Shown here one piece after another: positions 4,984 to 41,770 of a stretch of 43,546 nt of DNA. Under the pieces are notes generated by a model that did not search any database, was not told the origin of the DNA, and worked only from the letters and a program-made list of their open reading frames with translations. The position numbers and the translations under genes are program-made. Where the stretch lies: IMG/VR virus record IMGVR_UViG_3300037311_000460, positions 1 through 43,546 of that record; one strand, written 5' to 3'. The stretch comes from a virus. Its lineage: Duplodnaviria; Caudoviricetes. Each line of letters begins with the position of its first letter. The first letter of the stretch is position 1.

Positions 4984-5210
4984 CGATCGATCACTTCGCG
5001 ATGCTCGCGTTCGTGTTGCTGCTGACGGCTTCGCCGGAGCCCTCCGCAGCGTGGTGGTTCGCGGGCGCGTGGTGCGTCTCGCGCCTGCTGCAATGGGTCT
5101 TGCTCGGCGCGGTGATCGAAGCGAAGCGACAGAGGAAGGGGCTCACGCTGTTCACGATCGACGAGCAGGAGCTTGATCGACGACTTCAACCCGAGCGAAA
5201 GGATTCATGA
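4980..5210 (+). CDS. Small two-TM membrane protein
   Basis: ATGA overlaps at both ends, hydrophobic segments. Confidence 0.65.
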   Translation: MTIDHFAMLAFVLLLTASPEPSAAWWFAGAWCVSRLLQWVLLGAVIEAKRQRKGLTLFTIDEQELDRRLQPERKDS

Positions 5211-5389
5211 TGCTTGTTCTGAGCCGAAACGTGGGCGAATCGATTGTTGTTGATGGCCCGTGCGTTCTCACGGTGACCGAGGTGCGCGGCGGCAAGGTTC
5301 GCATCGGCTGCGTCGCCGAGCGTGACGTGCGGATCGACCGCGCCGAGGTGGCCGAGCGGCGCGACCTACCGCAGGAGGACGCCGCGTGA
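5207..5389 (+). CDS. csrA: CsrA/RsmA family RNA-binding translational regulator
   Basis: MLVLSRNVGESIVV...VTEVRGGKVRIG..A..DVRIDRAEV, canonical CsrA pattern including the R44-equivalent Arg. Confidence 0.93.
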   Translation: MMLVLSRNVGESIVVDGPCVLTVTEVRGGKVRIGCVAERDVRIDRAEVAERRDLPQEDAA

Positions 5390-6258
5390 GCATCGAGCGC
5401 ATCCAACTCCCGACCCGCGCCGCGTGGCTCGCGGAGCGGCACAAGACGCTCGGCGCAAGCGACTGCGCTGCGGTCATGGGCCGCTCAAGCTGGCAGAGCC
5501 CCTACAGCGTCTGGTGGCACAAGACGAACCCCTTGGAGCCCGAGGACCCCACGGTCGAGCAGATGGTGGGCCACTGCCTGGAACCGCTTGTCTTGGAACT
5601 CTTCAACGCGCACAGCGGAGTGAAGGCGACCGCGACTCCCAACGTGGTCTATCGCAACAGCCAGTGGCCGTGGCTCCACGCCTCGACCGATGCGCTGACG
5701 CTAGACGGGCTGCCGGTCGAACTCAAGACGGCCAAGTTCGACGCTGCCAAGACGTGGAAGAAGACCGTGCCGCTGGCGTACCTCGTCCAGTGCCACGTTC
5801 AGATGCTGGTGCTCGAGCGTGACGAGGCGTTCTGCGCTGTGCTGCTGAACGACAGCGGGTTCGCGTGGCACCCCGTGAAGCGTGTTCCCTCGCTGTGCGA
5901 CGCGATCGTGAAGACGACGGATTCGTTCTGGCGGCACTGCATTGAGACGCGAACGGCGCCGTGGACCGACGCTCACCAAGCAACGTCCGAAGCGCTGGGC
6001 GCGCAGTGGCCCGAGGTGAAGGAGGACAAGAGCATCGTCGAGGCCCCCGACGAGCTCGCCGGCGCAGGAGACGAGTACGACGCGGCCCAAGCCGTGATCG
6101 CCGAGGCGACGAAGGCGAAGGACGAAATCGCGAACCGCCTTAAGGCCCTGATCGGCCCGAAGAGGTTTGCAAGGCTCCCCGACGGAACGGGCTTTGATTG
6201 GTCGGGCAAGCCCCGCCGTTTCACCCGCAAGACGAAGGAGATCAAAGTCGATGCCTGA
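5386..6258 (+). CDS. YqaJ-like viral recombinase/exonuclease
   Basis: WLAERHKTLGASD, GHCLEP, HASTDAL..VELKT, YLVQCHVQM. Confidence 0.92.
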   Translation: MSIERIQLPTRAAWLAERHKTLGASDCAAVMGRSSWQSPYSVWWHKTNPLEPEDPTVEQMVGHCLEPLVLELFNAHSGVKATATPNVVYRNSQWPWLHASTDALTLDGLPVELKTAKFDAAKTWKKTVPLAYLVQCHVQMLVLERDEAFCAVLLNDSGFAWHPVKRVPSLCDAIVKTTDSFWRHCIETRTAPWTDAHQATSEALGAQWPEVKEDKSIVEAPDELAGAGDEYDAAQAVIAEATKAKDEIANRLKALIGPKRFARLPDGTGFDWSGKPRRFTRKTKEIKVDA

Positions 6259-7153
6259 GAAAACTAGCTTTGCCGAGCGGCTTGCCGCGCTTCGCGAGAC
6301 GCTCCGCGACAACCGCGAGAAGTTCACGGCGGTGGCCGCCGCGGGGGTGAACTACGACGAGTACGTCGAGCGGCTCGTGCAGGCGATCGGGCGCAACCCG
6401 AAGCTCCTGGACGCGACGCTCGGCAGTCTGTGTCAGACGCTCTTGGACTCGGTGATTCTGGGGCTGCCGATCGGAGGCCCCAGCGGGTACGGGCACGCCG
6501 TGCCGCGCCGCTCGGAAGACAAGGTGCTCGCGCAGTTCCAGGCCGGCTACCTCGGCAAACTGCAACTCGCCTACCAGAGCCCTTTGGTCGCCGGTGTCGT
6601 GGCGCGGGAAGTCTACCCGAACGACGACTTCGGTTTGCGGCTTGGGACGACGCCGTCGGTCGATCACGTCCCGACGTGCGGCGAGCGTGGGGGAGACGCG
6701 ACGGGTTACTACGCGCTGGTTTCCCTGACGAGCGGGTTTGCGCTGGTCGAGTACATGACCCGCCAGCAGGTCGCCGCGCACCGCGACAAGTACAGCAAGG
6801 GCGCCGACCGAAAGGACTCGGCGTGGAAGAGCGCCTTCGACGCAATGGCGAAGAAGACGGTTCTGCTGCGCGTGCTCAAGTGGGCCCCGGCTGCCAACGA
6901 GACGGCCCGCCGTGTGTTGCAGCAGGAAGAGTACGACGACGCGGGGGTCGGCCTGCAATCGGGGGACGCGGCCCCGACGCACGAAGCGGAGACGGTGGCC
7001 CAGGGGTTGCTCGAAGCCCCCGACGATCCGTTCGGCCCCGAGCCCGAGAAGCCCGCCGATCGCCGCGTAGCGGACGACGGCGCCCCCTCGGTCGAGGAAC
7101 TGATCGAAAACGGGGAGCTGGTGCCGGCGGGTGACGACGGGTTCCCGTTCTGA
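6251..7153 (+). CDS. recT: RecT family single-strand annealing protein
   Basis: NPKLLDAT..SL, AQFQAGYLGKLQLA, AREVYPNDDF, WKSAFDAMAKKTVLLRVLKWAP; follows YqaJ. Confidence 0.92.
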   Translation: MPEKTSFAERLAALRETLRDNREKFTAVAAAGVNYDEYVERLVQAIGRNPKLLDATLGSLCQTLLDSVILGLPIGGPSGYGHAVPRRSEDKVLAQFQAGYLGKLQLAYQSPLVAGVVAREVYPNDDFGLRLGTTPSVDHVPTCGERGGDATGYYALVSLTSGFALVEYMTRQQVAAHRDKYSKGADRKDSAWKSAFDAMAKKTVLLRVLKWAPAANETARRVLQQEEYDDAGVGLQSGDAAPTHEAETVAQGLLEAPDDPFGPEPEKPADRRVADDGAPSVEELIENGELVPAGDDGFPF

Positions 7154-7160
7154 TTGCAGC

Positions 7161-7221
7161 AGCGTGGCCGCGGGCGCGTCCGTTCAGCCGGGCGCGGGCC
7201 GTTCGACTCGGCCGCCACGCT
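7161..7221 (+). ncRNA. D-armless tRNA-like structure
   Basis: 8-bp stem AGCGTGGC/GCCACGCT stacked on 5-bp stem GGCCG/CGGCC with TTCGACT T-loop; 8-bp middle stem; intergenic. Confidence 0.6.
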
Positions 7222-7303
7222 TTTCGGCCCCTCTGCCCCGTTCGTCGGGTCAGCACGGGCAGGAATCTATCCCCCACGGACGCCCACGGAGGGCGGGGCA
7301 ACG

Positions 7304-8233
7304 GTGATCGACACCGCCACCACCAACGTCAAGTTCCGCCGCCTTGTGCGGGCGATCGCCGCAAGCGTCGGGTGCTCGGCTGTCGTCGCCAAGGTGCGAG
7401 CGGTGGGGCACCTCGAGCTGCTGTGGCACCTGACGATGCGGTCGGCCAAGCGAGGGGACATCGGGTCGCTCGACAACGTCGAGATCGCCGACGAGATCGG
7501 GTGGGAGGGGGACCCCGACGAGGTGGTCGCGATGCTGGTGGAGGCGGGCTGGTTGGACGAATGCGACAGACACCGGCTTGTCGTTCACGACTGGCACGAG
7601 CACTGCCCAGGGTTCGTTAAGCGCAACATCGATCGAGTCGGAGGCTTCGTTTGTGCAGCCAAGCGACCGCTTAACTGCTCAGGTGAGCAAGGAAGCGAGC
7701 GCTTCCCTACTCAAGTGAGCACGGAAGCGGCCACACCAAACCCAACCAAACCCAACCCAACCAAACCTGTTGCTAGCGCAACACCCGCGACGGCTTCGCC
7801 GATCGCTGCTCCCGCATCGGTCGATGCCCCTCGACCCAAGCGATCGCGGAAGGCGCCCTCGTTGCCGCCTGACGATCCGGGATTCCAGCGGTTCTACGCG
7901 GCGTACCCGCGTCGGGAGGGCCCCGGTCCGGCACGCGAAGCGTTTGCGAAGGCGGTGGAACGCATCCGAGGGCGGGACGGACCGGGTGGCGACGACCCGG
8001 TCGCGTGGCTGGCCGAGCGTGCGAGCGCCTACGCGGCGAGCTGGAGATCGCGACCGGCGCACGACCAGCAGTTCATCCCGCACCCATCGACGTGGCTCAA
8101 CCAAGAGCGCTACGACGACGACCCGCAAGCCTGGAGGACCGGCGATGCCCGAATCGGACCTGGACAGCGATACGACCCAGCGGCTCCGCGACCTGTCGGA
8201 GCGGTCGCAGGTGCGGCAGCGGATGGCTTCTGA
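7304..8233 (+). CDS. Phage replication initiator (O-like / replisome organiser)
   Basis: N-terminal winged-helix-like region (LVEAGWLD...VHDWHEH), C-terminal FQRFYAAYPRR...FIPHPSTWLNQERYDD, precedes DnaC-like ATPase. Confidence 0.85.
   Translation: MIDTATTNVKFRRLVRAIAASVGCSAVVAKVRAVGHLELLWHLTMRSAKRGDIGSLDNVEIADEIGWEGDPDEVVAMLVEAGWLDECDRHRLVVHDWHEHCPGFVKRNIDRVGGFVCAAKRPLNCSGEQGSERFPTQVSTEAATPNPTKPNPTKPVASATPATASPIAAPASVDAPRPKRSRKAPSLPPDDPGFQRFYAAYPRREGPGPAREAFAKAVERIRGRDGPGGDDPVAWLAERASAYAASWRSRPAHDQQFIPHPSTWLNQERYDDDPQAWRTGDARIGPGQRYDPAAPRPVGAVAGAAADGF
7661..7767. repeat. Candidate replication origin: 32-bp iterons plus CCAAA/CCCAA repeats
   Basis: AAGCGACCGCTTAACTGCTCAGGTGAGCAAGG / AAGCGAGCGCTTCCCTACTCAAGTGAGCACGG tandem, then A/C-rich pentamer repeats 7736-7767. 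Confidence 0.7.
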
Positions 8234-8972
8234 GGCGGCCCCACAGCCGATCGCCGGTGCCATGGGGCAGTTTGCCAAGTACCTCAGCGATCCATCGCCG
8301 GAGCAGGTGGCGGCCGTGGACCGGCGACGGGAGGCGGCAGAGTCGCGCGAGGCGGAGCGGAAGCGGCAGGATCGTGCGAGCGCTTGGGACGCCGTCGTCC
8401 GCGAGGTCGGCCGGCGTCACGCCTCGGCGACTCTCGACAGCTACGTCACCCAGTGCGACGAGCAATCGCGGGCGAAGGGGATGGTGGAGTCCTACGCGAA
8501 GAACGTGGTTCAGCGGGTGCGGAGCGGGACGAACCTCGTGCTGTACGGCCCGCCGGGGACCGGGAAGGACCATCTCGCGGTGGCCGTTCTGCGGGCTGCT
8601 GTCGGCGCCGGGATGCGACCGCGTGCGATCGACGGACAGGTGCTGTTCCAGCGGGCGCGGGACGCCATCTCGTCGGACCTTGGCGAGCGGGAGCTTCTGA
8701 CGCCGTACCTCCACGCCGACCTGCTGCTGCTGAGCGATCCCATCCCGCCGCTCGAATCGACGGGCGGGCCTCGCGAATACCAGCTCTCGCTGCTGTGGCG
8801 GATCGTGGATGGCCGCTACCGAGAGATGCGACCGACCGTTGTGACACTGAACGTCGCCACCCGCGAGGAGATGGACCGCCGGCTAGCGCCGAACCTGGTC
8901 GATCGCCTGATTGACGGGGCGTTCGTGGTGTGTTGCAAGTGGCCGAGTCACAGGGCGGCGAGCGAGAAGTGA
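8223..8972 (+). CDS. DnaC/IstB-like AAA+ helicase loader
   Basis: ATLDSY, Walker A GPPGTGKD, ADLLLLSD, IVDGRY...PTVVTLN, DRL. Confidence 0.9.
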   Translation: MASEAAPQPIAGAMGQFAKYLSDPSPEQVAAVDRRREAAESREAERKRQDRASAWDAVVREVGRRHASATLDSYVTQCDEQSRAKGMVESYAKNVVQRVRSGTNLVLYGPPGTGKDHLAVAVLRAAVGAGMRPRAIDGQVLFQRARDAISSDLGERELLTPYLHADLLLLSDPIPPLESTGGPREYQLSLLWRIVDGRYREMRPTVVTLNVATREEMDRRLAPNLVDRLIDGAFVVCCKWPSHRAASEK

Positions 8973-9001
8973 AGACAACAACACACGGAAAGGACGCCCG
9001 C

Positions 9002-9493
9002 ATGAACACCCCTGATCACGACCACGACGGGAACGCAGCGCTGCGCTTTTGGGTCGCCGGCGTCCCTCAGACACGGGGCTCGAAACGGGCGTTCGCCTTC
9101 AAGCGCAGGAACGGCACGCTGGGGGTTTCGGTCGCCGACAGCAACCCCAATAGCAAAGACTGGATGGGGGTCGTGCGTCAAGCGGCGCTCGAGCAGTGCC
9201 CGGCGCTCTCGAGCGGGCCGTTGTCGGGCCCGCTCGAGGTGGCGCTCACGTTCCATCTGCCGCGCCCGAAGGGGCACTACGGCACCGGGCGCAACGCGGG
9301 GACGCTCAAGACGAGCGCCGACGAGCACCACGCGAAGAAGCCGGACCTCTGCAAGTTGATCCGACCAGTAGAAGACGCGCTGAGCGGCGTGGCGTGGAAC
9401 GACGATTCGCAGCTCGTCGGCTACCGCCGCGGGACGCGAAAGGTTTACACGACCGGAATGGCGGGCGTGATGGTGAGCGTGTACGCGTTGTGA
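9002..9493 (+). CDS. rusA: RusA family Holliday junction resolvase
   Basis: GVPQTRGSKR, FHLPRPK, KKPDLCKLIRPVEDALSGVAWNDDSQLV. Confidence 0.9.
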   Translation: MNTPDHDHDGNAALRFWVAGVPQTRGSKRAFAFKRRNGTLGVSVADSNPNSKDWMGVVRQAALEQCPALSSGPLSGPLEVALTFHLPRPKGHYGTGRNAGTLKTSADEHHAKKPDLCKLIRPVEDALSGVAWNDDSQLVGYRRGTRKVYTTGMAGVMVSVYAL

Positions 9494-9915
9494 CGCTCCG
9501 CCGCAAGACACCGCTGAGGGCGAAGGTCGGCCTGAAGCCGAGCTCGAAACCGATGAAGCGAACGCCGCTCCGCAAGGTCGGCAAACAGAAGCAAAGGGAG
9601 CAACGGACCGTGGACCCCATGCGACGGCTACTGCGATCGACCAAGGGACGCTGCGTCCACTGCGATCGGGCGTTTGCCGTCGATCATTTGGAGTGCCATG
9701 AGATCGTTGGTGGCTCGAACCGGTGGAAGGCGGTGCAAGACCCGGACTTGTGGTTGGTGGTCTGTCGCGAGTGCCACCAGGTGGTGCAGGGGATGACGAA
9801 GAGCGCGCAGGTCGCGCTCAAGACAAAGCAGGTGATTCAGGCGGTCAACGAGAAGCTGGGGCGCAACGCCGTGGAGGTCGCGGCGTCGCTCGACAACCAA
9901 CCCGCAACGGAGTGA
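9490..9915 (+). CDS. HNH-like zinc-binding nuclease (nin-region type)
   Basis: Basic N-terminal KRTPLR repeats; CVHC...LECHE...LVVCRECH. Confidence 0.75.
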   Translation: MTLRRKTPLRAKVGLKPSSKPMKRTPLRKVGKQKQREQRTVDPMRRLLRSTKGRCVHCDRAFAVDHLECHEIVGGSNRWKAVQDPDLWLVVCRECHQVVQGMTKSAQVALKTKQVIQAVNEKLGRNAVEVAASLDNQPATE

Positions 9916-9920
9916 AGACG

Positions 9921-10586
9921 ATGAGCACAGCGACAATGGAACCAGAGAAGGCCGAGGATGACGGCTGGGAGACCATCGACCCGATGGACGACAGCGTCGA
10001 TCACAACGGGAATCCAATCGCCGACGACGAACCGGAGTCCGACGCGGCGCCGAGCGACTACACGAAGCGCGAGCAAGAGCACTACGCGGCGATCGTTGCG
10101 CTGAACGTGCGCGTCGAGGTGGCCCACAACGAATGGACGATGGCCAAGGAGGAGGCGAAGGACCGCAAGACGGCCTACGACGCGTTAGCGGGGATGCTGG
10201 TGGACCTCATCAAGCGGGGCCCGGACCCGCAGAAGACGCTCGACTTCGCCGGTAGCGAGAGCGCCGGCGACGACGAAGGCGACCTCACGCTGTTCTCGCC
10301 CGACACGGAGCCTGAGTGGCGATCGCGTCCGATCGAAGCGCTTGGCATGAGCGCGGCGATGAACCGCCGCCTCGACGAAGGGGGTATCGGAACGCTCGGG
10401 GACCTCGCGGACTTCTGGCGTGACGAGAACCGAGCGCTGACGGAACTTGCAGGCATCGGCGCAGAGAAGGCGGCCACGATCGCCGACGTGTGGGCGACTT
10501 ACACGGCCGCTCACCGCGAGGTGTACGGCATGATCGAAACGCAGCAGGGTGACGACGAGGCCACGGAAGGGACCGAAGGCGAATGA
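9921..10586 (+). CDS. Acidic/coiled-coil protein with C-terminal RNAP alpha-CTD-like HhH domain
   Basis: RPIEALGMSAAMNRRLDEGGIGTLGDL...LTELAGIGAEKAATI. Confidence 0.75.
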   Translation: MSTATMEPEKAEDDGWETIDPMDDSVDHNGNPIADDEPESDAAPSDYTKREQEHYAAIVALNVRVEVAHNEWTMAKEEAKDRKTAYDALAGMLVDLIKRGPDPQKTLDFAGSESAGDDEGDLTLFSPDTEPEWRSRPIEALGMSAAMNRRLDEGGIGTLGDLADFWRDENRALTELAGIGAEKAATIADVWATYTAAHREVYGMIETQQGDDEATEGTEGE

Positions 10587-10945
10587 CCGCCACCCCCACC
10601 ATCACCGCGATCCGATGGGAATCCGGCGGCGGGGACTCGGTCACGCGATACCACTCGGCTATCGACTCGCTCCCCCCGGCGCGGATCGCCGCCGAGGTGC
10701 TGAGGATCGGCGAGACGCTCCTCGCGAAGAACGCCGACTACGGGTCGAGCGCCCACAAGCCGCCGGCCTTGGCCCCGCACCTCGATCCCGGCGCGGCGAT
10801 CCTGGTCCGCATGTCGGACAAGATCGCCCGCATCGTGAGCCTCACGAAGCCGGGGTTTACCGCCAACGTCGACGAGTCGCTCGACGACACGTTCCGCGAC
10901 CTAGCGGGGTACTGCGTGCTGTGGCTGACGCGGCCGAAGTCGTGA
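10583..10945 (+). CDS. DUF1599 / nucleotide-modification-associated domain protein
   Basis: KNADYGSS...ILVRMSDKIARI...ESLDDTFRDLAGYCVL. Confidence 0.85.
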   Translation: MTATPTITAIRWESGGGDSVTRYHSAIDSLPPARIAAEVLRIGETLLAKNADYGSSAHKPPALAPHLDPGAAILVRMSDKIARIVSLTKPGFTANVDESLDDTFRDLAGYCVLWLTRPKS

Positions 10946-11009
10946 CCTCTCGCCTCTGCCGCGCACGCGGCCCCAACTACGCGCCACTACACGAACCCGG
11001 AACCGTCGA

Positions 11010-11489
11010 ATGGCCTACGCGCAAAACACCACCGTCAGCGTTGAAAAAAGCCGCGCCGAGATCGAGCGCGTGCTCGAACGGTACGGGGCGAAGCAGTTCC
11101 GCTACGGCCGCGACGACGAGCGCGGGCTGGCGATCGTCGAGTTCTCGGCCAACGAGCGTCACGTCCGCTTTGTGTTGCGGCTCCCCAACCGCACCGAGAA
11201 GCGATTCCAGCTCAGCAAGCGCGGGGCGCGGACCCCCGAGGCGACGCTGCGCGAGTGGGAGCAAGCCTGCCGCCAGAAATGGCGAGCCCTGCTGCTGACG
11301 GTGAAGGCCAAGCTCGAAGCAGTCGAAGCGGGGATCAGCGTGTTCGAGGACGAGTTCCTCGCGCACATTGTGCTTCCCAGCCAAGAGACCGTAGGCGACT
11401 GGCTCCGCCCGCAGATCGCCGAGGCGTACCTCAGCGAAGAGATGCCGACGCGGCTGCTCGCGCTCCCGGCGCCGAGTGCGGATCGTTGA
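11010..11489 (+). CDS. Conserved-looking phage hypothetical protein
   Basis: MAYAQNTTVSVEKSRAEIERVL...WRALLLTVKAKLEAVEAGI..FEDEFLAHIVLP. Confidence 0.85.
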   Translation: MAYAQNTTVSVEKSRAEIERVLERYGAKQFRYGRDDERGLAIVEFSANERHVRFVLRLPNRTEKRFQLSKRGARTPEATLREWEQACRQKWRALLLTVKAKLEAVEAGISVFEDEFLAHIVLPSQETVGDWLRPQIAEAYLSEEMPTRLLALPAPSADR

Positions 11490-11538
11490 TCGCCCCTAGC
11501 CTGTGAATCCTGTCAGGCTCTTTCCACGGAGGGACACG

Positions 11539-11748
11539 ATGGACGACGACTTCCAAGAGAACCGCGAGCGGGCCCTTGCGAAGCGCAAGTCGGAGCCGCT
11601 GCGGCGGTGGGTCAGCAAGAAGAAACCCGCTTACGTCACCATCACGGAACCGGGCCGCTACCGCGTTAACGCCGACGCGATGGGGGGCGACGCCACGCTC
11701 GTGGTGCTGATCCGAGTGCCGTCGAAAAAGGAGCGGCGCAGCGGTTGA
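11539..11748 (+). CDS. Small hypothetical protein
   Basis: ATG preceded by GGAGG; 69 aa. Confidence 0.55.
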   Translation: MDDDFQENRERALAKRKSEPLRRWVSKKKPAYVTITEPGRYRVNADAMGGDATLVVLIRVPSKKERRSG

Positions 11749-11828
11749 CCCCCGCCGACCGACTCGCTACGCCCGCGGTGTACTGCTGTGACGGTGACCG
11801 CGTTCCGCGATCCTTAGGGGGGTGTGCG

Positions 11829-12398: not shown

Positions 12399-12406
12399 AT
12401 CACGTG

Positions 12407-12479
12407 ATCAGCCGGCAGGCGCTAGCCTCCGGTTCGCTCGTGTCGGTGTGGAACCGGGGGCTAGCGCCCTGCGGCTGAT
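12407..12479. repeat. REP/REPIN-like inverted repeat (29-nt arms, 15-nt loop)
   Basis: ATCAGCCGGCAGGCGCTAGCCTCCGGTTC ... GAACCGGGGGCTAGCGCCCTGCGGCTGAT. Confidence 0.75.
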
Positions 12480-12504: not shown

Positions 12505-13194
12505 ATGATTGACGGAGACGGCGACAGCGAACCCGCCCGCCGCTTCTGCGCGGTCCCCGACCGCAACACCAACGGCAGCATCTGCCGCTGGAACCAGCCG
12601 GCGTGGGACGGCAAACGCTGGGTCGGCACGCCGGCGCCGCGCAAGTTGTTATGGACCTGCGACCGCAGCGTGCCGACCTATTACCGCCCGTCGCTCGAGT
12701 GGGCGTGGCGGCAGTGGGAAAAAGTCTGCGCGATCGTCGCCGAGTACACGGACGACGAGCGCCGGGCGGACCTCGTGATTCAGGCGGGCCGGATCGACGG
12801 CACCAGCGGCACGCTCGCCTGGGCCAACCTTCCGTGCGGTCCCGACCGCCAGCTCGCTAGCCGCATCGACACGGCCGAGCGTTATCACCTCGACCCCACG
12901 GTTCGCCCGGACCGCGGCACGGTGCATTTGGGCGCAGTCATGTGCCACGAGTTCGGGCACGTTCTGGGGCTCGACCACGACGCGAGCCCGGCCCGCTCGC
13001 TGCTCGACCCGATGTACGGCGCCGACTGCCTGACGCCGCAGGCGTGGGACATCGAGCAGGCCGTGATGCGGTACGGCCCGCCGATTGGCGCGACACCGAC
13101 GCCGGACCCCGCGCCCAAGCCAACCAAGAACGCCACCGCCCGGGTGACGATCGACGGCGTGGTCTACGCCGGCGTGCTGACGACCGAGAGCTGA
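12505..13194 (+). CDS. Matrixin (M10-like) zinc metallopeptidase
   Basis: HEFGHVLGLDH, DGTSGTLAWA, SLLDPMY turn region, N-terminal RFCAVPD resembling the cysteine switch. Confidence 0.9.
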   Translation: MIDGDGDSEPARRFCAVPDRNTNGSICRWNQPAWDGKRWVGTPAPRKLLWTCDRSVPTYYRPSLEWAWRQWEKVCAIVAEYTDDERRADLVIQAGRIDGTSGTLAWANLPCGPDRQLASRIDTAERYHLDPTVRPDRGTVHLGAVMCHEFGHVLGLDHDASPARSLLDPMYGADCLTPQAWDIEQAVMRYGPPIGATPTPDPAPKPTKNATARVTIDGVVYAGVLTTES

Positions 13195-13221
13195 CGGAAG
13201 CCTGACAGGATTCACAGGAAC

Positions 13222-24877: not shown

Positions 24878-24955
24878 CGCTGCCGAAGCGCAGAGTCCCA
24901 CGTTCACGAGTCCCCTCCGCGCGATTGGTCGCGCTCCAGCAGCAGGATACCAAGG

Positions 24956-26263
24956 ATGAGCGTCACCCTTCAGCGCACTCTGGGCGCCCGTCTCGCGAAG
25001 CTCCGCAAGGACGGCGGTCGCAATGGCGCAGCGCGTGCGAACGCCAACTTCCTCAACGAATGGAATCAGACGCTGGGGCTCGTTGCTCGCAACGAAGTGA
25101 CCGGCGCGATGGAAGAGGTTCGCGACGCCTCGCATCGTCCTGCACTCGCCCCCGGCCGCATCCCGGCCCGCGAAGTGAGCATCAAGGACCTGGCGATTGC
25201 GATCGGCGGTCACGGGTTTCACTCCGCCTTTGACCCCGCCTATCGCGAGGTCGATTCGGTGGCGGCCCTCGAAGCGGGCGGCATGGGGATCGACCCCAGC
25301 CGCTTCCAGGACGTGTCGCTCTTCCGCGCCGCGACGGCCGGCTTGGTGCAGGCCCGCATCCTGGAAGCGTACATGGAGGAGCCGAGCGTCACGGCGGCGC
25401 TTGCCGACGTGCAGAGCACCAAGCGGAATGGCGAGGTCCTGACGGGCCTGGGCGGGTTCTCGCGAGCGTCGATCGACCTCACGCGGCTTCCCAACCAGCC
25501 GCACCAGCGTCTGTCGTTCGGTGACCGCGTCGTGCGGACCCCGGAGACCATCGAGCGTGGGGCCGCTTGCGAGCTGACCAAGGAAGCGGTGTTCTTCGAC
25601 GACACGACCAACGTGCTGGCGAATGCGGCGCAGATTGGTGGGCACCTCAAGTACGTCCAGGACAACGATATCCTGCGGACCGTCTTGGGGATTGACAACA
25701 CCTACAACTACAACGGCATCGGCTACAACACGTTCTTCGCTTCGGGAGGTCCGTGGGTCAACGATCACGTCAACATCTTTGTTGACGAGACGGATATCCA
25801 GAACTGCCGCCGCCTGGCGAGCCGCATGACCGACCCCGAGACGGGCAAGGAAATCGGCTACCCGGACGTCACCACCGTGGTCTACGACCCGGACCAGGAA
25901 GGTGTCTGGGCGCGCGTGCTGAAGAGCACCGAGCAGCGCTTCGTGACGGAGACCAACCGCACCACGATCGCCTCGGCGCCCGAGTATGCCACGCGGCAGT
26001 ACGTTCAGGTCGCCACCAGCCGCATCCGCAACCTGCTGATCGACTCGGGGGTGAGCGAGGCCGAGGCGACGCAGCGCTGGTTCTACGGCGCGCCCAAGAA
26101 GGCGTTCACCTGGTTCGAGAACTGGCCGCTGATGGTCAAGGAAGTGCCGGCGACCGACTACATGATGGTCGATCAGGGCATCTTCGCGAGCTTCTTCACC
26201 AACTACCGCGGTCGCTGCGGCGTGGTCGAGCCGCGCTACTGGATTCGCAACCGCGCGAGCTGA
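24956..26263 (+). CDS. Major capsid protein (Mu gpT-like)
   Basis: 435 aa; ILEAY, ELTKEAVFFDDT, C-terminal RGRCGVVEPRY; position. Confidence 0.85.
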   Translation: MSVTLQRTLGARLAKLRKDGGRNGAARANANFLNEWNQTLGLVARNEVTGAMEEVRDASHRPALAPGRIPAREVSIKDLAIAIGGHGFHSAFDPAYREVDSVAALEAGGMGIDPSRFQDVSLFRAATAGLVQARILEAYMEEPSVTAALADVQSTKRNGEVLTGLGGFSRASIDLTRLPNQPHQRLSFGDRVVRTPETIERGAACELTKEAVFFDDTTNVLANAAQIGGHLKYVQDNDILRTVLGIDNTYNYNGIGYNTFFASGGPWVNDHVNIFVDETDIQNCRRLASRMTDPETGKEIGYPDVTTVVYDPDQEGVWARVLKSTEQRFVTETNRTTIASAPEYATRQYVQVATSRIRNLLIDSGVSEAEATQRWFYGAPKKAFTWFENWPLMVKEVPATDYMMVDQGIFASFFTNYRGRCGVVEPRYWIRNRAS

Positions 26264-34942: not shown

Positions 34943-37554
34943 GCCACGAAATCGATATCGAGGTCGAGTACCTGAGCGCTGAGTGGTTGGAACCGATCGC
35001 GACGCAGTACGGACTGGTTTGCGGGATCAGCTTCGATCCCTGCAAGCTACCGAAGATCGCTCAGGTGACAGCGACCTACACGGGCAGTGAGCCGGGCGGC
35101 GTCGTCGATTGGGCTTGGTGCGACCACCCGGACCCGCTCAGGTTGTGCACAGACGGCGTGGAGCCAACGGACGGTCTGGCGCCACCACCATGCGCAGCAA
35201 TCCCTTGTGGCGTTGGTGTGTTCGCGTCGCCGGACACGGGCGGCTCGACGGACGGGTCCACGCCGATCCACGTCGTTAGCGCGACGACGACGCAGAGCGT
35301 CGCGCGCTTCTACCTTGGCCGCCAGCAAAACCCGAACGGTCCCAACGACTTCGTCAACACGCTCGCAGGCCAGAAGTCGTTCGACTACTACGACGTGTTC
35401 TTCGAGGTCGGCGCGCAGACGGCTGGCGGCTGGGAGCGGCAGAGCGGAAAGGTCGCGCAGTGCGATCACCGCGTCATTGACAACAGCGCCGGCAAGCTCA
35501 CGACCCAGCACTCGATTGGGTGCCCCTGGTGGAAATATAGTGTGATCTACCACAACGCGGGACCGTACGCGCCGGGCGATCAGCCGAGCGACGAGGGGGT
35601 CGTCGCGACGGTCACGTTCACGCGGTGCGAGCCGACCAACAACACGGCGCACCCGCTGGTCATCGACATGGACTATACGCCGTGCTGCGGCGGCGATGGG
35701 TCGCTCGTCTCACCCGAGGTCAACCCGACGAAGCTCTGCCGCGACTGGCTTCTTCCGGGCGCGCCATGCACGGGTGGGACTATCGCGCCGCTAGGCGACC
35801 TTGATTGCGTACCGAGGATGCTGCCGGCAGTCGGCTGGCCCAAGATGCCCGAGGCTTGGGTCGATGGCCTTGTGACGCCGGCGATCGTGCCGGTGTACCC
35901 GCGCTGCGGCAACTGGCCTTCCGTGCCGACGGTGATGAAGAACGCGAACGACTTCCGCGTCGTGCAGATAGCGCTCGGCAAGTGCGTCACCGCGCTGGCG
36001 ACGACGCCTCAAGACACCTGGGACCTACCGGGAACCGACGGGCTTGGGCCGACAACGGAGTACCAGAACGCATGCCGGCTCAACTGGCCCGAAGTGCTTA
36101 ACGACGACGCCGGGCTGCTGACGAACGTCTACGACAACGCACGCATTGAGGTGTTCTTGGTGCGCGGCGAAGACGGTCACGCTTCAACGGCAGCACAGAA
36201 AGCGGCGCGAGCGCAGAACGTGAAGCTCGTCAGCACGGGCGACGCCTGCATCAGCAAGTGCTGCGGTTGCAACGAGCTGTTCACCGCGCCAATTGCCGCG
36301 CGCGTTGCGTACATCGAAGGGACGCAGAAGTTCACGCAGACGTGCCAGACCTACGACGAGCCCTATCGTCGCGAGCAGTTCGGCTTTTGCGCGAGCTGCG
36401 GTACAGCGGTGAATCACGAGCTCGTCGGGTACGACCAAGGTGACATCAGCGACGATCGATGCGGCGTTACGATTGGCTGGGTGCCTGTCCTACAAAACGG
36501 CGCAGGCGGCCCAGTGGGCGGGCGGGCGTTCTCCGGCTTCCGCCTCAAGTCTTTCCTGGACGGAACGATTCTCGGCCGCCCCGAAGCGACTAACGTCGGC
36601 CAGCGCTGCTCACCCGGTGTAAATCAGCGCGGTGTTTATGACACGCACGCCTTCTCGTACAACGCCAATTGCGACGACCCTAACTTTCATCCCTGTCCGC
36701 CGTTCGTCACGCTGTGCGACGTCGACTGCATCTGCGTTTCGTACGCATTCAGCGACGGCTGCCCGTCACTGGATCAGATTCCTCCGTACTGGGCGAATGA
36801 AGCTGGGTCGACTGTGGCGTGCGTCTCTTGTGTGACAACGTACCCCGCTACGCCGTACTGCCCAGCAACAACCGTGACGACGAGCGCGGACAAGCTGCTC
36901 AGCGGCGTTCCCGCTCCGAGTTGCCTAGAGTGGCTGTACGGTCCGTTCACCTCGGTGGCGTCTTCGACGTCGGCGAACGAGCCCGGTTGCGCGGGCGGCG
37001 CGTCGTACACGCTGACAAGCTATTCGCGGAGCGGGAACGGATACTCTCGAGCGGAGTACGGGGGTGCTGGCAGCTCCGACTTCTGCGCGTGGGGAGACCC
37101 TTACCAGTACCCCGTGCAACCGGGATGCGATTTTGTGGATTGCAGCGGGTCGATTAACTTCACGACGATCCATTACGACTTGCCTCTCGCAGCGCTGCAA
37201 CGCATACAGGCGGGTCTCGCGCCGGGTACGACATGCTACGAACAGAACGCCGAAGGCGGCGTCACTCTCACGCTGTGCGTGCCGGCGAGTTGGATCGGTC
37301 AACCCCCGCCGACGATCAGACGAGCAACTGGAAAGTACGAGGCTGTCTCAGACGGCGTGGTAGTCGGCAGCGCGGCGGGGACATACTCACCGGGCGCGAC
37401 GGTGTACGCGCCGGTCATCACTACCTGCCCCTACTGCCTGCCGATCGACGCCATCCTGTCTGCCGGCGGTTTTGTCTTCTGGAATCACTTCACTTGCTCT
37501 CATACTCCGCTCCACGCGTCGCAGCCGTGGAGCGTACCTCGAGACCCAGCATGA
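34939..37554 (+). CDS. Cysteine-rich putative tail fibre / receptor-binding protein (871 aa)
   Basis: About 45 Cys counted by eye, Thr/Gly/Pro-rich, end of tail operon. Confidence 0.7.
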   Translation: MSHEIDIEVEYLSAEWLEPIATQYGLVCGISFDPCKLPKIAQVTATYTGSEPGGVVDWAWCDHPDPLRLCTDGVEPTDGLAPPPCAAIPCGVGVFASPDTGGSTDGSTPIHVVSATTTQSVARFYLGRQQNPNGPNDFVNTLAGQKSFDYYDVFFEVGAQTAGGWERQSGKVAQCDHRVIDNSAGKLTTQHSIGCPWWKYSVIYHNAGPYAPGDQPSDEGVVATVTFTRCEPTNNTAHPLVIDMDYTPCCGGDGSLVSPEVNPTKLCRDWLLPGAPCTGGTIAPLGDLDCVPRMLPAVGWPKMPEAWVDGLVTPAIVPVYPRCGNWPSVPTVMKNANDFRVVQIALGKCVTALATTPQDTWDLPGTDGLGPTTEYQNACRLNWPEVLNDDAGLLTNVYDNARIEVFLVRGEDGHASTAAQKAARAQNVKLVSTGDACISKCCGCNELFTAPIAARVAYIEGTQKFTQTCQTYDEPYRREQFGFCASCGTAVNHELVGYDQGDISDDRCGVTIGWVPVLQNGAGGPVGGRAFSGFRLKSFLDGTILGRPEATNVGQRCSPGVNQRGVYDTHAFSYNANCDDPNFHPCPPFVTLCDVDCICVSYAFSDGCPSLDQIPPYWANEAGSTVACVSCVTTYPATPYCPATTVTTSADKLLSGVPAPSCLEWLYGPFTSVASSTSANEPGCAGGASYTLTSYSRSGNGYSRAEYGGAGSSDFCAWGDPYQYPVQPGCDFVDCSGSINFTTIHYDLPLAALQRIQAGLAPGTTCYEQNAEGGVTLTLCVPASWIGQPPPTIRRATGKYEAVSDGVVVGSAAGTYSPGATVYAPVITTCPYCLPIDAILSAGGFVFWNHFTCSHTPLHASQPWSVPRDPA

Positions 37555-37871
37555 GCCGCACCATTCGCATCGTTGACGGCCGTGTCGTAAGCGACACCGG
37601 GCCAGAGCCCGAGCTCGCCGACGACTTCGTGCCGATCGCCGAACGGCCGCAGAGAGCGAATCCGCTCCCGCTGGGCGACTACACCGAGCAGCTGCTTGCC
37701 TCGGTGGGGATTACCAAAGACCGCTACGCCGCCGCGAAGGAAGCCCTGGGGCTCCCCCCAACGTGCGGCTGCGCGAGCCGGCAGGCGTGGCTGAACCGCG
37801 CAGGGGCGTGGCTCGCGGGACTTGCGCAGAAACAATCCACCGACCAATCAGGAGACCCCGATCATGGCTGA
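37551..37871 (+). CDS. Small CGC-motif protein, candidate fibre assembly factor
   Basis: LGDYTEQLLASVGIT...CGCASRQAWLN; ATGA-coupled to the fibre gene. Confidence 0.75.
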   Translation: MSRTIRIVDGRVVSDTGPEPELADDFVPIAERPQRANPLPLGDYTEQLLASVGITKDRYAAAKEALGLPPTCGCASRQAWLNRAGAWLAGLAQKQSTDQSGDPDHG

Positions 37872-38298
37872 CCTCACCATCACCCCAGCAAACGTGGCCC
37901 CACGCTCGAGCACGGCGCGCATCGAGACGGCGCTCTTTGCATCGGCAGTCACCGCGGGGCAGTCGGTCTGCCGGACGCAAACGCAGGCTTGGCGACCGGC
38001 CGACGCCAACGAGGCGGGGCCAACGGCAAGCGAGGCTGCCGGCCAGCGCGGGCTGGGGATCGCTCTCTCGAGTGGCGACAGCAACACACCGGGGATCGTC
38101 GCCACCGAGGGGCTAATCGACGTGGGCGCCACGCTGACGGTCGGCACGGCCTACTACGTCTCGACCAACGCCGGGGGAGTGGCTCCCGGCGCCGACATTG
38201 CTGCGGCGGCCGCGGGGACCAAGATCAGCCTGCTGGGGGTGGCGGTGGCGACCAACCGGCTTGCGCTCAACCCCTCGGCGCAGGTGGGGACGCGGTAG
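37864..38298 (+). CDS. Second decoration/cement-like structural protein
   Basis: MADLTITPANV, AVTAGQSV, GIAL, LTVGTAYYVS; AGGAG RBS. Confidence 0.7.
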   Translation: MADLTITPANVAPRSSTARIETALFASAVTAGQSVCRTQTQAWRPADANEAGPTASEAAGQRGLGIALSSGDSNTPGIVATEGLIDVGATLTVGTAYYVSTNAGGVAPGADIAAAAAGTKISLLGVAVATNRLALNPSAQVGTR

Positions 38299-38319
38299 AT
38301 GGCGGAGCTGCTGCTGCTC

Positions 38320-39114
38320 CTAGCGAGACGCTTTAGCGGTCTTCCCGGACTTTGCGGCAGCCGAAAGTGTGTCGATGGCCGCACGCAAGTACCCGCTGTC
38401 TTCCAGACTCAGTTTGGCGACGTTGACAGCCTTCACTTCGGGGCCCTTGAGTTTGAGTCGCACGGTGTCGCCATCAACGCTTAAAGCTTTAGCCTCGACG
38501 GTGTACTTCCCGTCCATGCTTTTCCAGACACGATAAGAATCCTTGCTCTCCACCGACGAAGTGGATCGCAAAGGAGAACGATCGTGCTCCGACACGATGA
38601 ACATCTGATCGGAGAGTGCTAGGGTCGAGATGGTAATGTTGTGGTTGACCCCGTCAGATCCGGTGATTGTGACGATCCCGGCCCTGGTGGAGGTCGCGTC
38701 CCCAACGACGACCACTTTGCCGGTAGTGTCGTGAAACACGTGAAGCTGCAGTGAGTGCAACGTCGCGAAATCCGGAACTGACGTTGCCTCTGCGCGAGTC
38801 TTGTTGCCCACGTCGAAAAGCGACTCGGCTAGCTCGTCGCCAGATGGCTTCTCCTCTTCCTGCACTTGCGGCGCGATTCGTCTGGGAGGCTTCGATGGCG
38901 AACTGCGGGGACGGCGCGGGGGCGTGAGCGATGAGGTCGATGGCTGTTGCTTGGGGATTGATTCAGACGGTGGTGGGCTCGAGGCTCCTGATCTGTGAGT
39001 GTGGTATCCACCCGTCTTCCGGTTGTAGTGCCCTCCATTGGCGTCTAGGCCGCCGGGGTGCGCACCCGCGGGGAGAACCACAAGGGCAACTAAAATCAGG
39101 GCTATGGGACGCAT
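38320..39114 (-). CDS. Secreted protein with His-rich YHYH-like motif and SHD1 domain(s)
   Basis: Signal peptide, HPGGLDANGGHYNRKTGGYHTH, RVWKSMDGKYTVEAK...LSLEDSGYL. Confidence 0.82.
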   Translation of the reverse strand: MRPIALILVALVVLPAGAHPGGLDANGGHYNRKTGGYHTHRSGASSPPPSESIPKQQPSTSSLTPPRRPRSSPSKPPRRIAPQVQEEEKPSGDELAESLFDVGNKTRAEATSVPDFATLHSLQLHVFHDTTGKVVVVGDATSTRAGIVTITGSDGVNHNITISTLALSDQMFIVSEHDRSPLRSTSSVESKDSYRVWKSMDGKYTVEAKALSVDGDTVRLKLKGPEVKAVNVAKLSLEDSGYLRAAIDTLSAAAKSGKTAKASR

Positions 39115-39211
39115 GGTGCCTGTCTAGACCAAAACGGGGCAGCGTACGCGGAGACCAGAAGAGGTTATCCTAGCGGGTTGCCGCTATCTACTTCCGTGTC
39201 GCGGATTTCCC

Positions 39212-40450
39212 ATGAAGACGTATTTGTCAGTCCTGAGCGTGGCCGCGCTCCTTGTAATTGCCCAGGTTGCGCGAGCCTGGAACGCCGGCGGCCACGCCAT
39301 CGTTGACTTGATCGCATGGGGCGAGCTCGCCGAGAGCGACCGAGCGGCGGCTGTGAGCCTGCTGAGGGACCACCCGCGGTTCGACCAGCACTTCCTCGAC
39401 CGCATGCCTCCCGACGTCTGGAAGGCGAGTCCCGCCGAGCAAGACGCGTGGGCCTTCGCGCACGCCGGGACGTGGCCCGATATCGTGCGCAGCCCCCGAG
39501 GCGCCGTCACTCGCGAGGACGTCGCGCTCTTCAATCGACCTACGTGGCACTACATCAACCTGTGCCACTTCCCGGCGCCGGCCGATCGTGACGAGCTGGC
39601 CCCTCTGCTGGACGTCAATCGATCGACGGAGCCCCCAGCCGACCCCGACGAGCGCGAGCAGAACGTCGCCCAGGCGATGGGCAGTGCGATGCGGGTCCTC
39701 GGCGACGGGGCCGCACCTCGCGCGCGTCGAGCGGTGGCGCTCTGCTGGCTGCTACACCTCGCTGGGGATGCTCACCAGCCAGCGCACGCGGGCTCGCTCT
39801 ACACCCGCGACCGGTTCCGCACCGGGGACCGCGGGGCAAACCAGATACCGGTCCGCGGGCGTGGCGGGAATCTCCACTCCGCTTGGGATGCGTCGATCAC
39901 GACCAGCAGGCGGCTGAACGACTGGCGCGGCGACGCCGTGCGCCTGACGAGTCGCCACCGTGAAGCAGGCCAAGCCGCGACGGCGGAGTTGACGGCCAAG
40001 GCGTGGCTCATGGAGAGCTTTGCGCTGGGGCGGAAGCTGGTCTACGCGCCCGAGGTACTGGCCGCGGTCCAAAGGCCCGCCAGCGAGGGCGACCTCGAGC
40101 CGCTCGCGCTCTCGCCGGAATACCTTCAGGCAGCCGGCCAAACGTCGCAGCGACGCGCGGTAGAAGCGGGCTTTCGGATTGCGGCGATCCTCGCCGGCAA
40201 CCTGCCCCCCTCCGACGACCAGCTCCGCGGGTTTGATCGGCCGGCGCCGGTAACTTCGCTCGCTCCGCGACCCACGACGGAGAAGCCCGAGGCTACCAAG
40301 CCTGCGGCGTCCGAGTCAGCCCACAGCCACTGGATCAACACCAGAACCGGGGCGCGGCACAACTCGACGTGCCGCTGGTTTGGGAAGACGAGCCACGGCC
40401 GCTACTGCGGGCCCGACGAGGGGCACGCCTGCGGGCAGTGCGGGGGGTAG
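39212..40450 (+). CDS. Secreted S1/P1 nuclease with C-terminal Cys/His metal-binding tail
   Basis: Signal peptide then WNAGGH, WPD, WHYIN, HLAGDAHQPAH, GDRGAN, NLHSAWD; tail RHNSTCRWF...C...CGQCGG. Confidence 0.93.
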   Translation: MKTYLSVLSVAALLVIAQVARAWNAGGHAIVDLIAWGELAESDRAAAVSLLRDHPRFDQHFLDRMPPDVWKASPAEQDAWAFAHAGTWPDIVRSPRGAVTREDVALFNRPTWHYINLCHFPAPADRDELAPLLDVNRSTEPPADPDEREQNVAQAMGSAMRVLGDGAAPRARRAVALCWLLHLAGDAHQPAHAGSLYTRDRFRTGDRGANQIPVRGRGGNLHSAWDASITTSRRLNDWRGDAVRLTSRHREAGQAATAELTAKAWLMESFALGRKLVYAPEVLAAVQRPASEGDLEPLALSPEYLQAAGQTSQRRAVEAGFRIAAILAGNLPPSDDQLRGFDRPAPVTSLAPRPTTEKPEATKPAASESAHSHWINTRTGARHNSTCRWFGKTSHGRYCGPDEGHACGQCGG

Positions 40451-40487
40451 CGCAAGGGCGATGGATAAGGGGCTGGGCTAGGCGACA

Positions 40488-40808
40488 TCACGCGACGTCA
40501 TCACCCGCCGCCACGATTGCCGTCGCCACTTTGTAGATGTCGTGCGCGTCGCCGTCGTGGCGGATGCCGATCGCCCAGACTTCGACCATTCTTCGGACTT
40601 CGTCGATCCGATAAACGATCCGGTAGCGGCCGGCGGCGCGGATACTGTTGCTTCCCTGCAGAGGCCCAGTCAGCGGCTTGCCAGCGAGTGGGTTGATCTG
40701 GAGGTGGTCGATTTTTCTGAAGACGCGGTCACGCACGCTGCCGTCGAGCGACTTTAGGTGCTCGATTGCAATAGGGGCGAGCGTGACCTCGTAATCGTCC
40801 CGCTCCAC
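40488..40808 (-). CDS. RelE/ParE family toxin
   Basis: YEVTLAP.A...L..NPLAGKPLTGPLQG..SIRA.GRYRIVYRID....VEVWAIGIR. Confidence 0.9.
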   Translation of the reverse strand: MERDDYEVTLAPIAIEHLKSLDGSVRDRVFRKIDHLQINPLAGKPLTGPLQGSNSIRAAGRYRIVYRIDEVRRMVEVWAIGIRHDGDAHDIYKVATAIVAAGDDVA

Positions 40809-40809
40809 G

Positions 40810-41142
40810 TCACAGTCCCAGCTCGGCCTTCACCTCACGCCAAGGGCGCCCCAGGCCGGCTTCGATCTCCGCTTTGCCACGGAGCGCAAGCTCCTGCAGC
40901 GTGGCGATCGTGAGGACGGGCGGGCCGATCGGGTTCATCGGCCGCGGCTCGCGTGTGGGCCGTCGCACGACGACTGCGTTAAATCGCGACAGGAACGCAT
41001 GATCGGTCTGCGGGAGGGTGCTATTTGCCATCGCGGCCGGGTCTACGATCCGGTCTCTGCGTACCTTTGGCTTTGCAGGAAACAGGCTCTTCTGGCTCTG
41101 GCTCCGCGTTTCAATGATGCTTTCGTCGACTGTCGAGTTCAT
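40810..41142 (-). CDS. Putative antitoxin
   Basis: C-terminal LRGKAEIEAGLGRPWREVKAELGL typical of RelE partners; start uncertain. Confidence 0.65.
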   Translation of the reverse strand: MNSTVDESIIETRSQSQKSLFPAKPKVRRDRIVDPAAMANSTLPQTDHAFLSRFNAVVVRRPTREPRPMNPIGPPVLTIATLQELALRGKAEIEAGLGRPWREVKAELGL

Positions 41143-41612
41143 AGCGACCTCTGCGTTCCGGGGACTGTTTGTGCTGTGATGCGTCGAGCCATCAAAAGCT
41201 CATCGTTTGCCCAAAGCTCGCATGCGTAGATCCCCTCGTGAGCGAATGGCAGGTCGAAGGAAACAGCTTCTTCAAAGACGTCGAGCGGCGAGGAAAACGT
41301 GGGGTTGGCGTGAAGCACGGCAAGGACACCGTCCTCGCTAATGGAGCTACTGGGTTCAACGACGTTGCCGACATCTATCGGAGGAGGTGGCGGCGGGCCG
41401 CTGGGACAATGTGCCGAATCGACGACCCGAATCGCTAGCCGGACGGGGCCGACCCCATCGGTGATTGCAAAGTACAAAGTAACGGGATGTACGATCGGGA
41501 ACTGCGTCGCGAAGACGGTTTCGTACAAGCCGAGCAGAGTAAACTTGCCCGTGCTCGGGTCTCGGTGGACGGCATCGCACAGAACCAACGCGAGGCAGAA
41601 CGGAGGGCTCAT
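41139..41612 (-). CDS. DUF6941-like beta-sandwich protein
   Basis: LALVLCDAVHRDPSTGKFTLLGLY...FAHEGIYACELWANDELL; ATGA-coupled to the antitoxin. Confidence 0.75.
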   Translation of the reverse strand: MSPPFCLALVLCDAVHRDPSTGKFTLLGLYETVFATQFPIVHPVTLYFAITDGVGPVRLAIRVVDSAHCPSGPPPPPPIDVGNVVEPSSSISEDGVLAVLHANPTFSSPLDVFEEAVSFDLPFAHEGIYACELWANDELLMARRITAQTVPGTQRSL

Positions 41613-41631
41613 TGCGAATAGGTCCGCGCAC

Positions 41632-41662
41632 AAAAAAACCACGCTCTCGACTTGAGGCGTGG
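41632..41662 (-). terminator. Intrinsic terminator
   Basis: Minus strand CCACGCCTC-AAGTC-GAGAGCGTGG followed by T7. Confidence 0.8.
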
Positions 41663-41770
41663 CGCAGACTCCCCTCCTACGCGGCCGCGTCTTGCGGTCG
41701 CCGGCGTCCTTGCCACCCCCCTCCATCTTCGGGCCGCTCCTACTCCGTAGCGCAGGCCCTGGTCTTGCGC
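41632..41770 (-). ncRNA. Candidate CsrB/RsmZ-like GGA-rich small RNA (5' end approximate)
   Basis: Six GGA motifs within 41670-41746, some in hairpin loops, then terminator; TTGACA upstream at 41798-41803. Confidence 0.55.

Follow-up and report, generated by a model that had tools for sequence, protein, structure and literature searches.

We propose, with about as much confidence for as against and from the letters of the DNA, that a GGA-rich, terminator-bearing element near the right end of a presumed planctomycete prophage is one copy of a recurring planctomycete leader of accessory DUF6941 toxin-antitoxin cassettes, probably a CsrA-bound attenuator, which stands beside a separate phage csrA gene. 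The window, i.e., the whole stretch of 43,546 nucleotides that was analysed, is one whole virus record (IMG/VR IMGVR_UViG_3300037311_000460), classed as provirus. In the original prediction, the csrA gene of the early operon, the ANGGA motifs at phage translation starts and the GGA-rich element were taken together as a phage-encoded Csr circuit consisting of CsrA, its target sites and an antagonist small RNA (sRNA). That claim is not sustained, as the element is found to travel with DUF6941 cassettes and not with csrA. The best explanation for the co-location of csrA and the cassette is phage mosaicism rather than co-inheritance as a circuit, and the leader is likely read by any CsrA in the cell.

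The element (Table 1) had been described as a GGA-rich terminated RNA at 41632-41770. On the minus strand its six GGA lie at 41746, 41740, 41724, 41709, 41677 and 41672; three of them stand in local hairpin loops, one of which is an AAGGAC hexaloop at about 41702-41715, and the terminator-like hairpin at 41639-41662 is bulged and followed by seven U, a combination that was missed by a strict terminator scan. The U run ends 20 nt upstream of the start of the DUF6941 gene, which had not been noted there before. Compared with shuffled sequences, the element has an excess of A(N)GGA (6 vs 2.0, p = 0.017) and of ANGGA (3 vs 0.85, p = 0.04), and it ranks first for A(N)GGA among 134 terminator-like sites in 11 phage sequences. 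The description stands as regards the A(N)GGA sites, the hairpin and the U run, but not as regards plain GGA, the count of which is not above that of shuffles (6 vs 4.5, p = 0.245). The element moreover belongs to a recurring non-coding element. The predicted accessibility of the GGAs varies with the assumed 5' end, with four of five being accessible (0.67-0.86) for a 5' end at 41745. No match to Rfam was seen at the element at E up to 5, nor at gathering score for the leaders of 10 related loci.

The recurrence of the element was studied in 52 DUF6941 loci, i.e., the window, 19 loci from genomes and 32 of 34 loci from metagenomes (the other two having no gene start). In 22 of the 52, a T-tract followed by TGCG is present within 70 nt of the start, nearly always behind a hairpin, where the units were chosen blind to GGA; the distance from the unit to the start codon is 13-47 nt in the 22 loci. 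After removal of the duplicates L086, L088, L092 and L108, 18 non-redundant leaders were left, which contain 22 ANGGA vs 5.6±2.3 in shuffles (reached in 0 of 500), 11 GGATG vs 3.8 (0 of 300) and 14 looped GGA vs 7.1 (3 of 300). Moreover, a GGA lies 40-56 nt from the leader end in 16 of the 18 vs 7.2 expected (0 of 1000), the interval having been set after seeing the data, while a second GGA at 70-90 nt, present in 11 of the 18, is not above shuffles. It is noted that GGATG belongs to the SELEX consensus quoted in PMC7652899, and that it differs from the Shine-Dalgarno (SD) form; an ATG after GGA is no commoner than chance (8/50, the shuffled fraction being 0.16). A conserved leader peptide was considered and rejected, because the frames, stops and ends of the upstream open reading frames (uORFs) vary among the homologues.

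A covariance model (R1) was built from 17 leaders. It is a weak model, with 4 base pairs and 0.49 bits per position; run on 101 Pirellulales-order genomes, it yielded 26 matches, spread over 21 of them. The good matches precede DUF6941 (L187 and L206, with L183 being a training locus found again) or other accessory open reading frames (ORFs; L185, L186, L194), and many of the 26 were set aside as generic terminators or coding sequence. The covariation score of the terminator stem is 0.218, with the slid control reaching 0.204. Directly upstream of the unit in several relatives there are hexamers that, read by eye, look promoter-like, together with a GCCGAT box. As separate observations, a leader of the same type stands before other accessory ORFs at L184, L185, L186 and L194, one of these ORFs being an SDH-family Clp-fold protease-like gene, and a 3' segment is common to L186 and L107, where it precedes different genes.

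The genes behind the leader form a conserved order, in which DUF6941 is followed by a small ORF with a shared central motif and then by a toxin (window 40488-41612; L002-L012 and L085-L114; positions 46676-47717 of the phage G306). Of the third genes, 21 were tested, chosen from among 30 loci, and all are PemK-like, 18 of them scoring above the cut-off; in the prophage the third gene is RelE/ParE. The small antitoxin-like ORF keeps the central motif, with its C-terminus varying among the cassettes; in the prophage this ORF has no family match in profile searches. Structural look-alikes of DUF6941 in the Atlas were all DUF6941. Judged from gene order and profile matches, the trio is likely a toxin-antitoxin cassette. 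No paper mentioning DUF6941 was found in the literature searched, and the data point to a DUF6941 cassette of three genes that has not been described before and in which the toxin can be exchanged.

The csrA ORF is a real CsrA-family gene and lies in the early operon, as had been predicted. Its product falls below the TIGR00202 equivalog cut-off (45.8 vs 70.1 bits). It keeps L2, L4, R6, A36, R44 and E46, of which L2, L4, R6, R44 and E46 are invariant with 12 other planctomycete-type CsrAs; compared with the solved proteobacterial proteins, R7, P37, H43, E45 and I47 are replaced by N, E, D, A and V, respectively. R44 has been described as essential (PMC7366521). Of the five activity-predictive residues in PMC13443453, where the residue-based activity model has an accuracy of 0.7, the phage CsrA has only S11, provided that the numbering is equal. 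A homologue search for the product returned itself or one near copy only. As for the host side, the caveat that host CsrA paralogues may be the real partners is borne out: all five planctomycete genomes examined hold 6-20 csrA matches each, so partners in the host are plentiful, and this multiplicity is consistent with PMC13443453. In one of the genomes (G003, with 20 matches in total), three csrA copies lie about 1.5 kb apart (L040, 7104-10273), two of them with near-identical upstream sequence.

Based on the reading proposed above, we infer a series of leader transcription, leaky termination, CsrA-dimer binding and lowered cassette expression. Transcription would start upstream of 41750 and would mostly stop at the U run, with the read-through fraction becoming the messenger RNA (mRNA) of the cassette. 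A CsrA dimer would be taken from a cell pool that would comprise several host paralogues plus, during early gene expression, the phage protein. It would contact two GGAs, namely the one immediately 5' of the terminator stem and another about 35 nt upstream; CsrA dimers span sites 10-63 nt apart (PMC7652899). Such binding would most likely keep read-through or translation low. In the prophage copy, one route may be that CsrA blocks the SD-led start at 41726 and so keeps ribosomes that initiate there from passing over the terminator.

The linkage between csrA and the element was studied in viral DNA. With one DNA pattern at least 119 viral csrA loci were collected, all with a match to the CsrA profile; DUF6941 is absent from the DNA examined around csrA in every one (0 of at least 119, with full flanks for 80), and none of the 80 loci with full flanks matches the leader model at E<1. 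Among whole records, none of 28 other csrA-bearing viruses has DUF6941 or a true leader match, with only 6 of the 28 being at least 90% complete. The sole model match in a csrA-bearing record (G582) turned out to be an ORF end plus a terminator beside a terminase gene and was rejected. A GGA-count scan of nine csrA-bearing phage sequences found no comparable non-coding unit, and three sites with 3-4 A(N)GGA. The prophage G314 has csrA, yqaJ and recT, and no element in 58 kb. Conversely, G306, the phage closest to the prophage by shared genes, is estimated to be complete and lacks csrA, yet carries the cassette, and at the corresponding place of its map; upstream of the cassette a hairpin and a T run are seen by eye, with no model match. 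Co-occurrence of csrA and the sRNA across related prophages, which had been put forward as a check, was thus not found.

We now turn to the GGA motifs at the translation starts, each of which was confirmed where it had been reported. Upstream of the replication initiator (rep), CGCCC-ACGGA-GGGCG stands at 7281-7295, with further GGA at 7262 and 7278; the others lie at 13196/13208/13217, at 8987/8992, in the early leader at 3662/3692/3712 and upstream of the capsid gene at 24945/24954, besides the one at 11522-11534 (Table 1). We compared ANGGA at -25..-3 in 60 hand-set phage starts with 391 host starts. The latter were taken from 773 kb of planctomycete DNA, including some prophage neighbourhoods, by means of a script that scores codons, and any wrong starts among them lower the host figure. 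For the whole phage the motif is present in 10/60 starts vs 42/391 in the host (p = 0.13); for the early genes it is present in 8/19 (p = 7.5e-4 vs host) and for the late genes in 2/31 (early vs late, p = 0.004). The host starts are themselves enriched for AGGAG, CGGAG and AAGGA at SD distance. With the same gene caller, the early starts of the csrA-less G306 have as many ANGGA (8/23) as those of the prophage (6/17; p = 1.0), and in csrA-bearing viral loci of similar GC the motif is present in 87/331 starts. The equal frequency in G306 implies that ANGGA is a mark of early ribosome sites in phages whether or not csrA is present, and the early-gene motifs are probably strong SD sequences in the main. 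At the early genes ANGGA is thus above the host level and equal to that of the csrA-less phage, in line with the caveat that GGA is part of normal SD sequences.

The claim that the motifs are often presented in hairpin loops is not borne out, because no enrichment over the host is seen either by minimum free energy folding (phage 5/60 vs host 28/391, p = 0.45) or by a local-hairpin rule (early 4/19 vs host 40/391, p = 0.13). In context, the hairpins at rep and at 11526 are poorly populated, the GGA being unpaired with probabilities of 0.10 and 0.20, respectively. By contrast, the narrower motif ACGGA is present at 6/19 early starts, 0/31 late starts and 7/391 host starts, and on auto-called early starts at 4/17 in the prophage vs 0/23 in G306 (p = 0.026). 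This excess is a lead only, because two of the six sites are one duplicated 15-nt block and the motif was picked after the fact. Genuine targets of CsrA may exist among the ACGGA subset, the foremost candidate being the triple site upstream of rep. Separately, the AAGGA before the capsid gene (24952-24958) overlaps the start codon and reads CAAGGAUG, near the CsrA SELEX consensus.

It had also been argued that the circuit fits the missing cI. Here the premise stands, as there is no HTH_3 match in the window, while the argument does not: an HTH_3 (cI-type) match over the cut-off is present in 12 of the 28 other csrA-bearing records, which means that csrA is no general substitute for cI. At the place where an immunity region is usually located, a small leftward ORF (3277-3492) faces two cysteine-rich ORFs (3722-3997 and 3973-4218), all of them unassigned. 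ORF 3722-3997 has a relative that in G314 is close to the integrase and in L241 close to csrA. ORFs 3277-4218 are a possible non-canonical immunity module. Between ORF 3277-3492 and the divergent ORF at the same place in G314 the homology is not significant (E 0.28); a homologue search for ORF 3277-3492 returned itself or one near copy only, and the Atlas gave no usable lead.

A number of results weigh against a CsrA-bound attenuator. The shuffles overstate the significance, because the 18 training leaders are partly related. In held-out distant DUF6941 loci, to which the GGA-blind rule was applied, the terminator element is present in 11/66, and these leaders have 8 ANGGA vs 4.5 (35/500 shuffles) and 18 GGA vs 23.8, i.e., below shuffles; the GGA at the preferred position is present in 5/11 (405/1000), or in 5/8 after three non-leaders are left out (135/1000), and one held-out leader (L404) has zero GGA. 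An earlier set of 30 loci, 26 of which are within the 66, yielded four new elements with the same null result. The held-out null implies that conservation is stronger for the layout of promoter, leader and terminator than for the content of GGA. If TTG is admitted as a start codon, GGA plus a start codon is somewhat in excess (26/50; 10/300 shuffles). In the prophage copy the fold stability is no higher than that of shuffles (z +0.39), five of the six sites read GGAG, which is SD-like, and none GGAU, the frame of DUF6941 is shared by an SD-led ATG at 41726, and no consensus sigma-70 promoter was found upstream; the sole promoter-like match there is a weak sigma-28-like pattern at 41877. CsrA-linked termination at pgaA, moreover, is Rho-dependent and not intrinsic (PMC7652899). 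Several of these results would be expected if a toxin-antitoxin operon were simply damped by a leader and terminator of the ordinary kind, with the GGAs being SDs of uORFs or purine-rich by chance and with CsrA uninvolved: the held-out leaders are not significantly GGA-rich, the prophage copy has, besides its GGAG sites, two SD-led uORFs (the first sharing the frame of DUF6941, the other terminating at the DUF6941 start codon), and its plain GGA count is unexceptional. We nevertheless regard this explanation as rather unlikely, since in the closer subfamily both ANGGA and GGATG are in excess and a GGA keeps a fixed position, and since the uORF frames and ends are not conserved. Alternatively, the unit might be a compact stand-alone planctomycete CsrA sponge that shares its promoter with accessory cassettes and by which the phage titrates the host CsrA pool. 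This would agree with the enrichment of GGATG and looped GGA in the leader family, with the accessible GGAs predicted for a 5' end at 41745, and with a promoter-like hexamer pair, seen by eye, right before the 70-100 nt unit in several relatives. By contrast, the unit always lies 13-47 nt before a start codon in the 22 loci, which points to a leader, the interrupted U-tracts suggest leaky termination, some copies have no GGA, and the family has only 1-5 GGA per 100 nt vs 13-22 GGA motifs in CsrB/CsrC-type RNAs (PMC6546359), so we consider the sponge unlikely.

The self-contained phage Csr circuit of the original prediction, in which phage CsrA would repress early and replication genes at ANGGA hairpins, a phage sRNA would titrate it and the whole would replace cI, draws on the presence of all three parts in one prophage, on R44 being kept in the phage CsrA, on the ACGGA counts given above (6/19 early vs 7/391 host, 0/31 late and 0/23 in G306), on the element topping the A(N)GGA score among the 134 terminator-like sites, and on the lack of an HTH_3 match in the window. 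It is nonetheless highly improbable, in view of the 0/28 records and the 0/80 flanked loci, of G314 having csrA without the element and G306 the cassette without csrA, of the hairpin loops not being enriched and of the 12/28 records with HTH_3. Only a little less improbable, in our judgement, is that planctomycetes possess an uncatalogued class of CsrA-sensing attenuators before DUF6941 toxin-antitoxin cassettes and that the prophage has wired one of them to its own CsrA, whereby the early phage protein would bind both the ACGGA sites of rep and the cassette leader and would couple the timing of replication to the toxin switch without a recognisable cI.

The phage csrA is a known kind of gene, and the leader-plus-cassette family is uncatalogued. 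Sobrero and Valverde (2020, PMC7366521) surveyed 2517 phage genomes and reported csrA in 30; as in the phage and plasmid csrA/rsm alleles of that paper, the gene here is a CsrA-family gene in a (pro)phage with R44 kept, with the difference that its host is presumably a planctomycete; that word does not occur in the text of PMC7366521. Like CsrB/CsrC and RsmX/Y/Z, the element is short and predicted to be non-coding, contains several A(N)GGA, a number of which stand in small loops, and has an intrinsic-terminator-like hairpin; it differs from them in having no Rfam match, few sites and a fixed place directly before an ORF. With the E. coli pgaA and iraD leaders (PMC7652899) it shares several CsrA-type sites at dimer-bridgeable spacing upstream of the first gene and, in the likeness to the uORF coupling of iraD, an upstream ORF that in the prophage copy overlaps the first gene. 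It departs from these leaders in that a hairpin of intrinsic type, followed by a U run, takes the place of a Rho site as stop signal, and in that the downstream operon is toxin-antitoxin-like. The cassette resembles the toxin-antitoxin-chaperone (TAC) operons (10.1101/2024.02.24.581848, PMC6377645) in that it combines three genes, one for a type II toxin (RelE or PemK), one small and antitoxin-like, in which an additional segment is conserved, and one further conserved gene. The difference is that this further gene is DUF6941, rather than one for an established SecB-like chaperone, and that it is placed first. The TAC-like cassette stands in prophage accessory positions in both the window and G306. 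In the searches, which covered openly accessible papers in their main text, no title was found that deals with a CsrA sponge encoded by a phage or with a Csr RNA of planctomycetes; relatives may be among the phages listed in the supplement of PMC7366521. Planctomycetes have many csrA paralogues, yet no RNA partner is described in the literature searched. The leader family provides short, defined candidate CsrA-binding RNAs, with termination before a toxin-antitoxin-like operon as a simple read-out, and through it planctomycete Csr control becomes testable.

Table 1. Positions of the features in the window and the basis of each assignment.
Feature	Position	Strand	Basis
Attachment core, repeated, left prophage end; looks like the 3' half of a tRNA	2154..2196		43-nt contig of depth 39.5 vs about 12 in flanking contigs; tRNA likeness from sequence
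ACGGA-containing SD block, 15 nt; identical copy at 9904-9918; the two stand before unrelated early genes	3955..3969	+	sequence
csrA, 59 aa; in-frame ATG at 5207 as alternative start; directly upstream of yqaJ-recT, early operon	5210..5389	+	PF02599, 56.1 bits (cut-off 27); phrog_9500, E 4e-12
Replication-initiator 5' region: CAGGA and two ACGGA, the second of these in a 5-bp hairpin that overlaps the SD	7260..7295	+	sequence, local hairpin; unpaired probability 0.03, 0.36, 0.10
Replication-initiator gene	7304-8233	+	phrog_9474
ACGGA and AAGGA upstream of rusA	8985..8994	+	sequence
TTCC-ACGGA-GGGA, 4-bp hairpin, upstream of ORF 11539	11522..11534	+	unpaired probability 0.20
Three GGA motifs upstream of ORF 13222	13194..13219	+	sequence
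RelE/ParE-family toxin gene	40488..40808	-	PF05016, 27.3 bits (cut-off 23); phrog_1213
110-aa ORF, likely antitoxin; central F...RxP motif common to the second ORF of other DUF6941 cassettes	40810..41142	-	antitoxin role assigned from position
DUF6941 gene, 157 aa, first cassette gene	41139..41612	-	PF22091, 46.1 bits; start set by alignment with 27 homologues
GGA-rich leader: six GGA, terminator-like hairpin 41639-41662, U run 41632-41638, then TGCGC	41626..41750	-	sequence; predicted
Tyrosine integrase, right prophage end	42377..43546	+	PF00589

From left to right, the window contains an array of clustered regularly interspaced short palindromic repeats (CRISPR; 1 to about 600), a first integrase (930-2066), the attachment core, three leftward ORFs, and a rightward early operon with csrA, yqaJ, recT, the replication initiator, a dnaC-like loader and rusA, followed 3' by packaging, head and tail genes, an accessory region and the second integrase. 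The direct repeats GTAACA at 43476/43487 are mirrored by those at 2292/2304, and these repeats suggest that the second integrase is the prophage's own. The first integrase region (930-2196) has direct repeats of its own (2062, 2074) and abuts the attachment core of the prophage; the first integrase is probably that of another element, which would have inserted into the same tRNA gene in tandem with the prophage. With ARAGORN no whole tRNA was found at the attachment core, and no circular junction was seen in one DNA sequencing run, which may be the source of the window. Among the sequencing runs listed as containing the sequence there is no RNA run. The CRISPR array, at the left edge and adjoining the integrase, has a 35-nt repeat and 30-31-nt spacers, of which seven tested against the prophage and the other sequences examined gave short chance matches only.

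That the host is a planctomycete is presumed from sequence relatives: full-length relatives of the terminase, with 44-47% identity, sit in Pirellulales-order genomes, and 18 of the 19 DUF6941 loci taken from genomes are of Planctomycetota type. As single-protein queries against viral contigs, the capsid gene and DUF6941 each found no relative, and csrA found one. A search for RecT in 301 Planctomycetota genomes gave distant matches only, in 10 of them. Note also that the accessory genes include an S1/P1 nuclease (39212-40450), an SHD1-domain protein (38320-39114) and an M10 (matrixin) peptidase (12505-13194). Finally, we note that in 161 of 251 Pirellulales-order genomes only the C-terminal half of the terminase large subunit is matched, in long frames that apparently lie outside related prophages.

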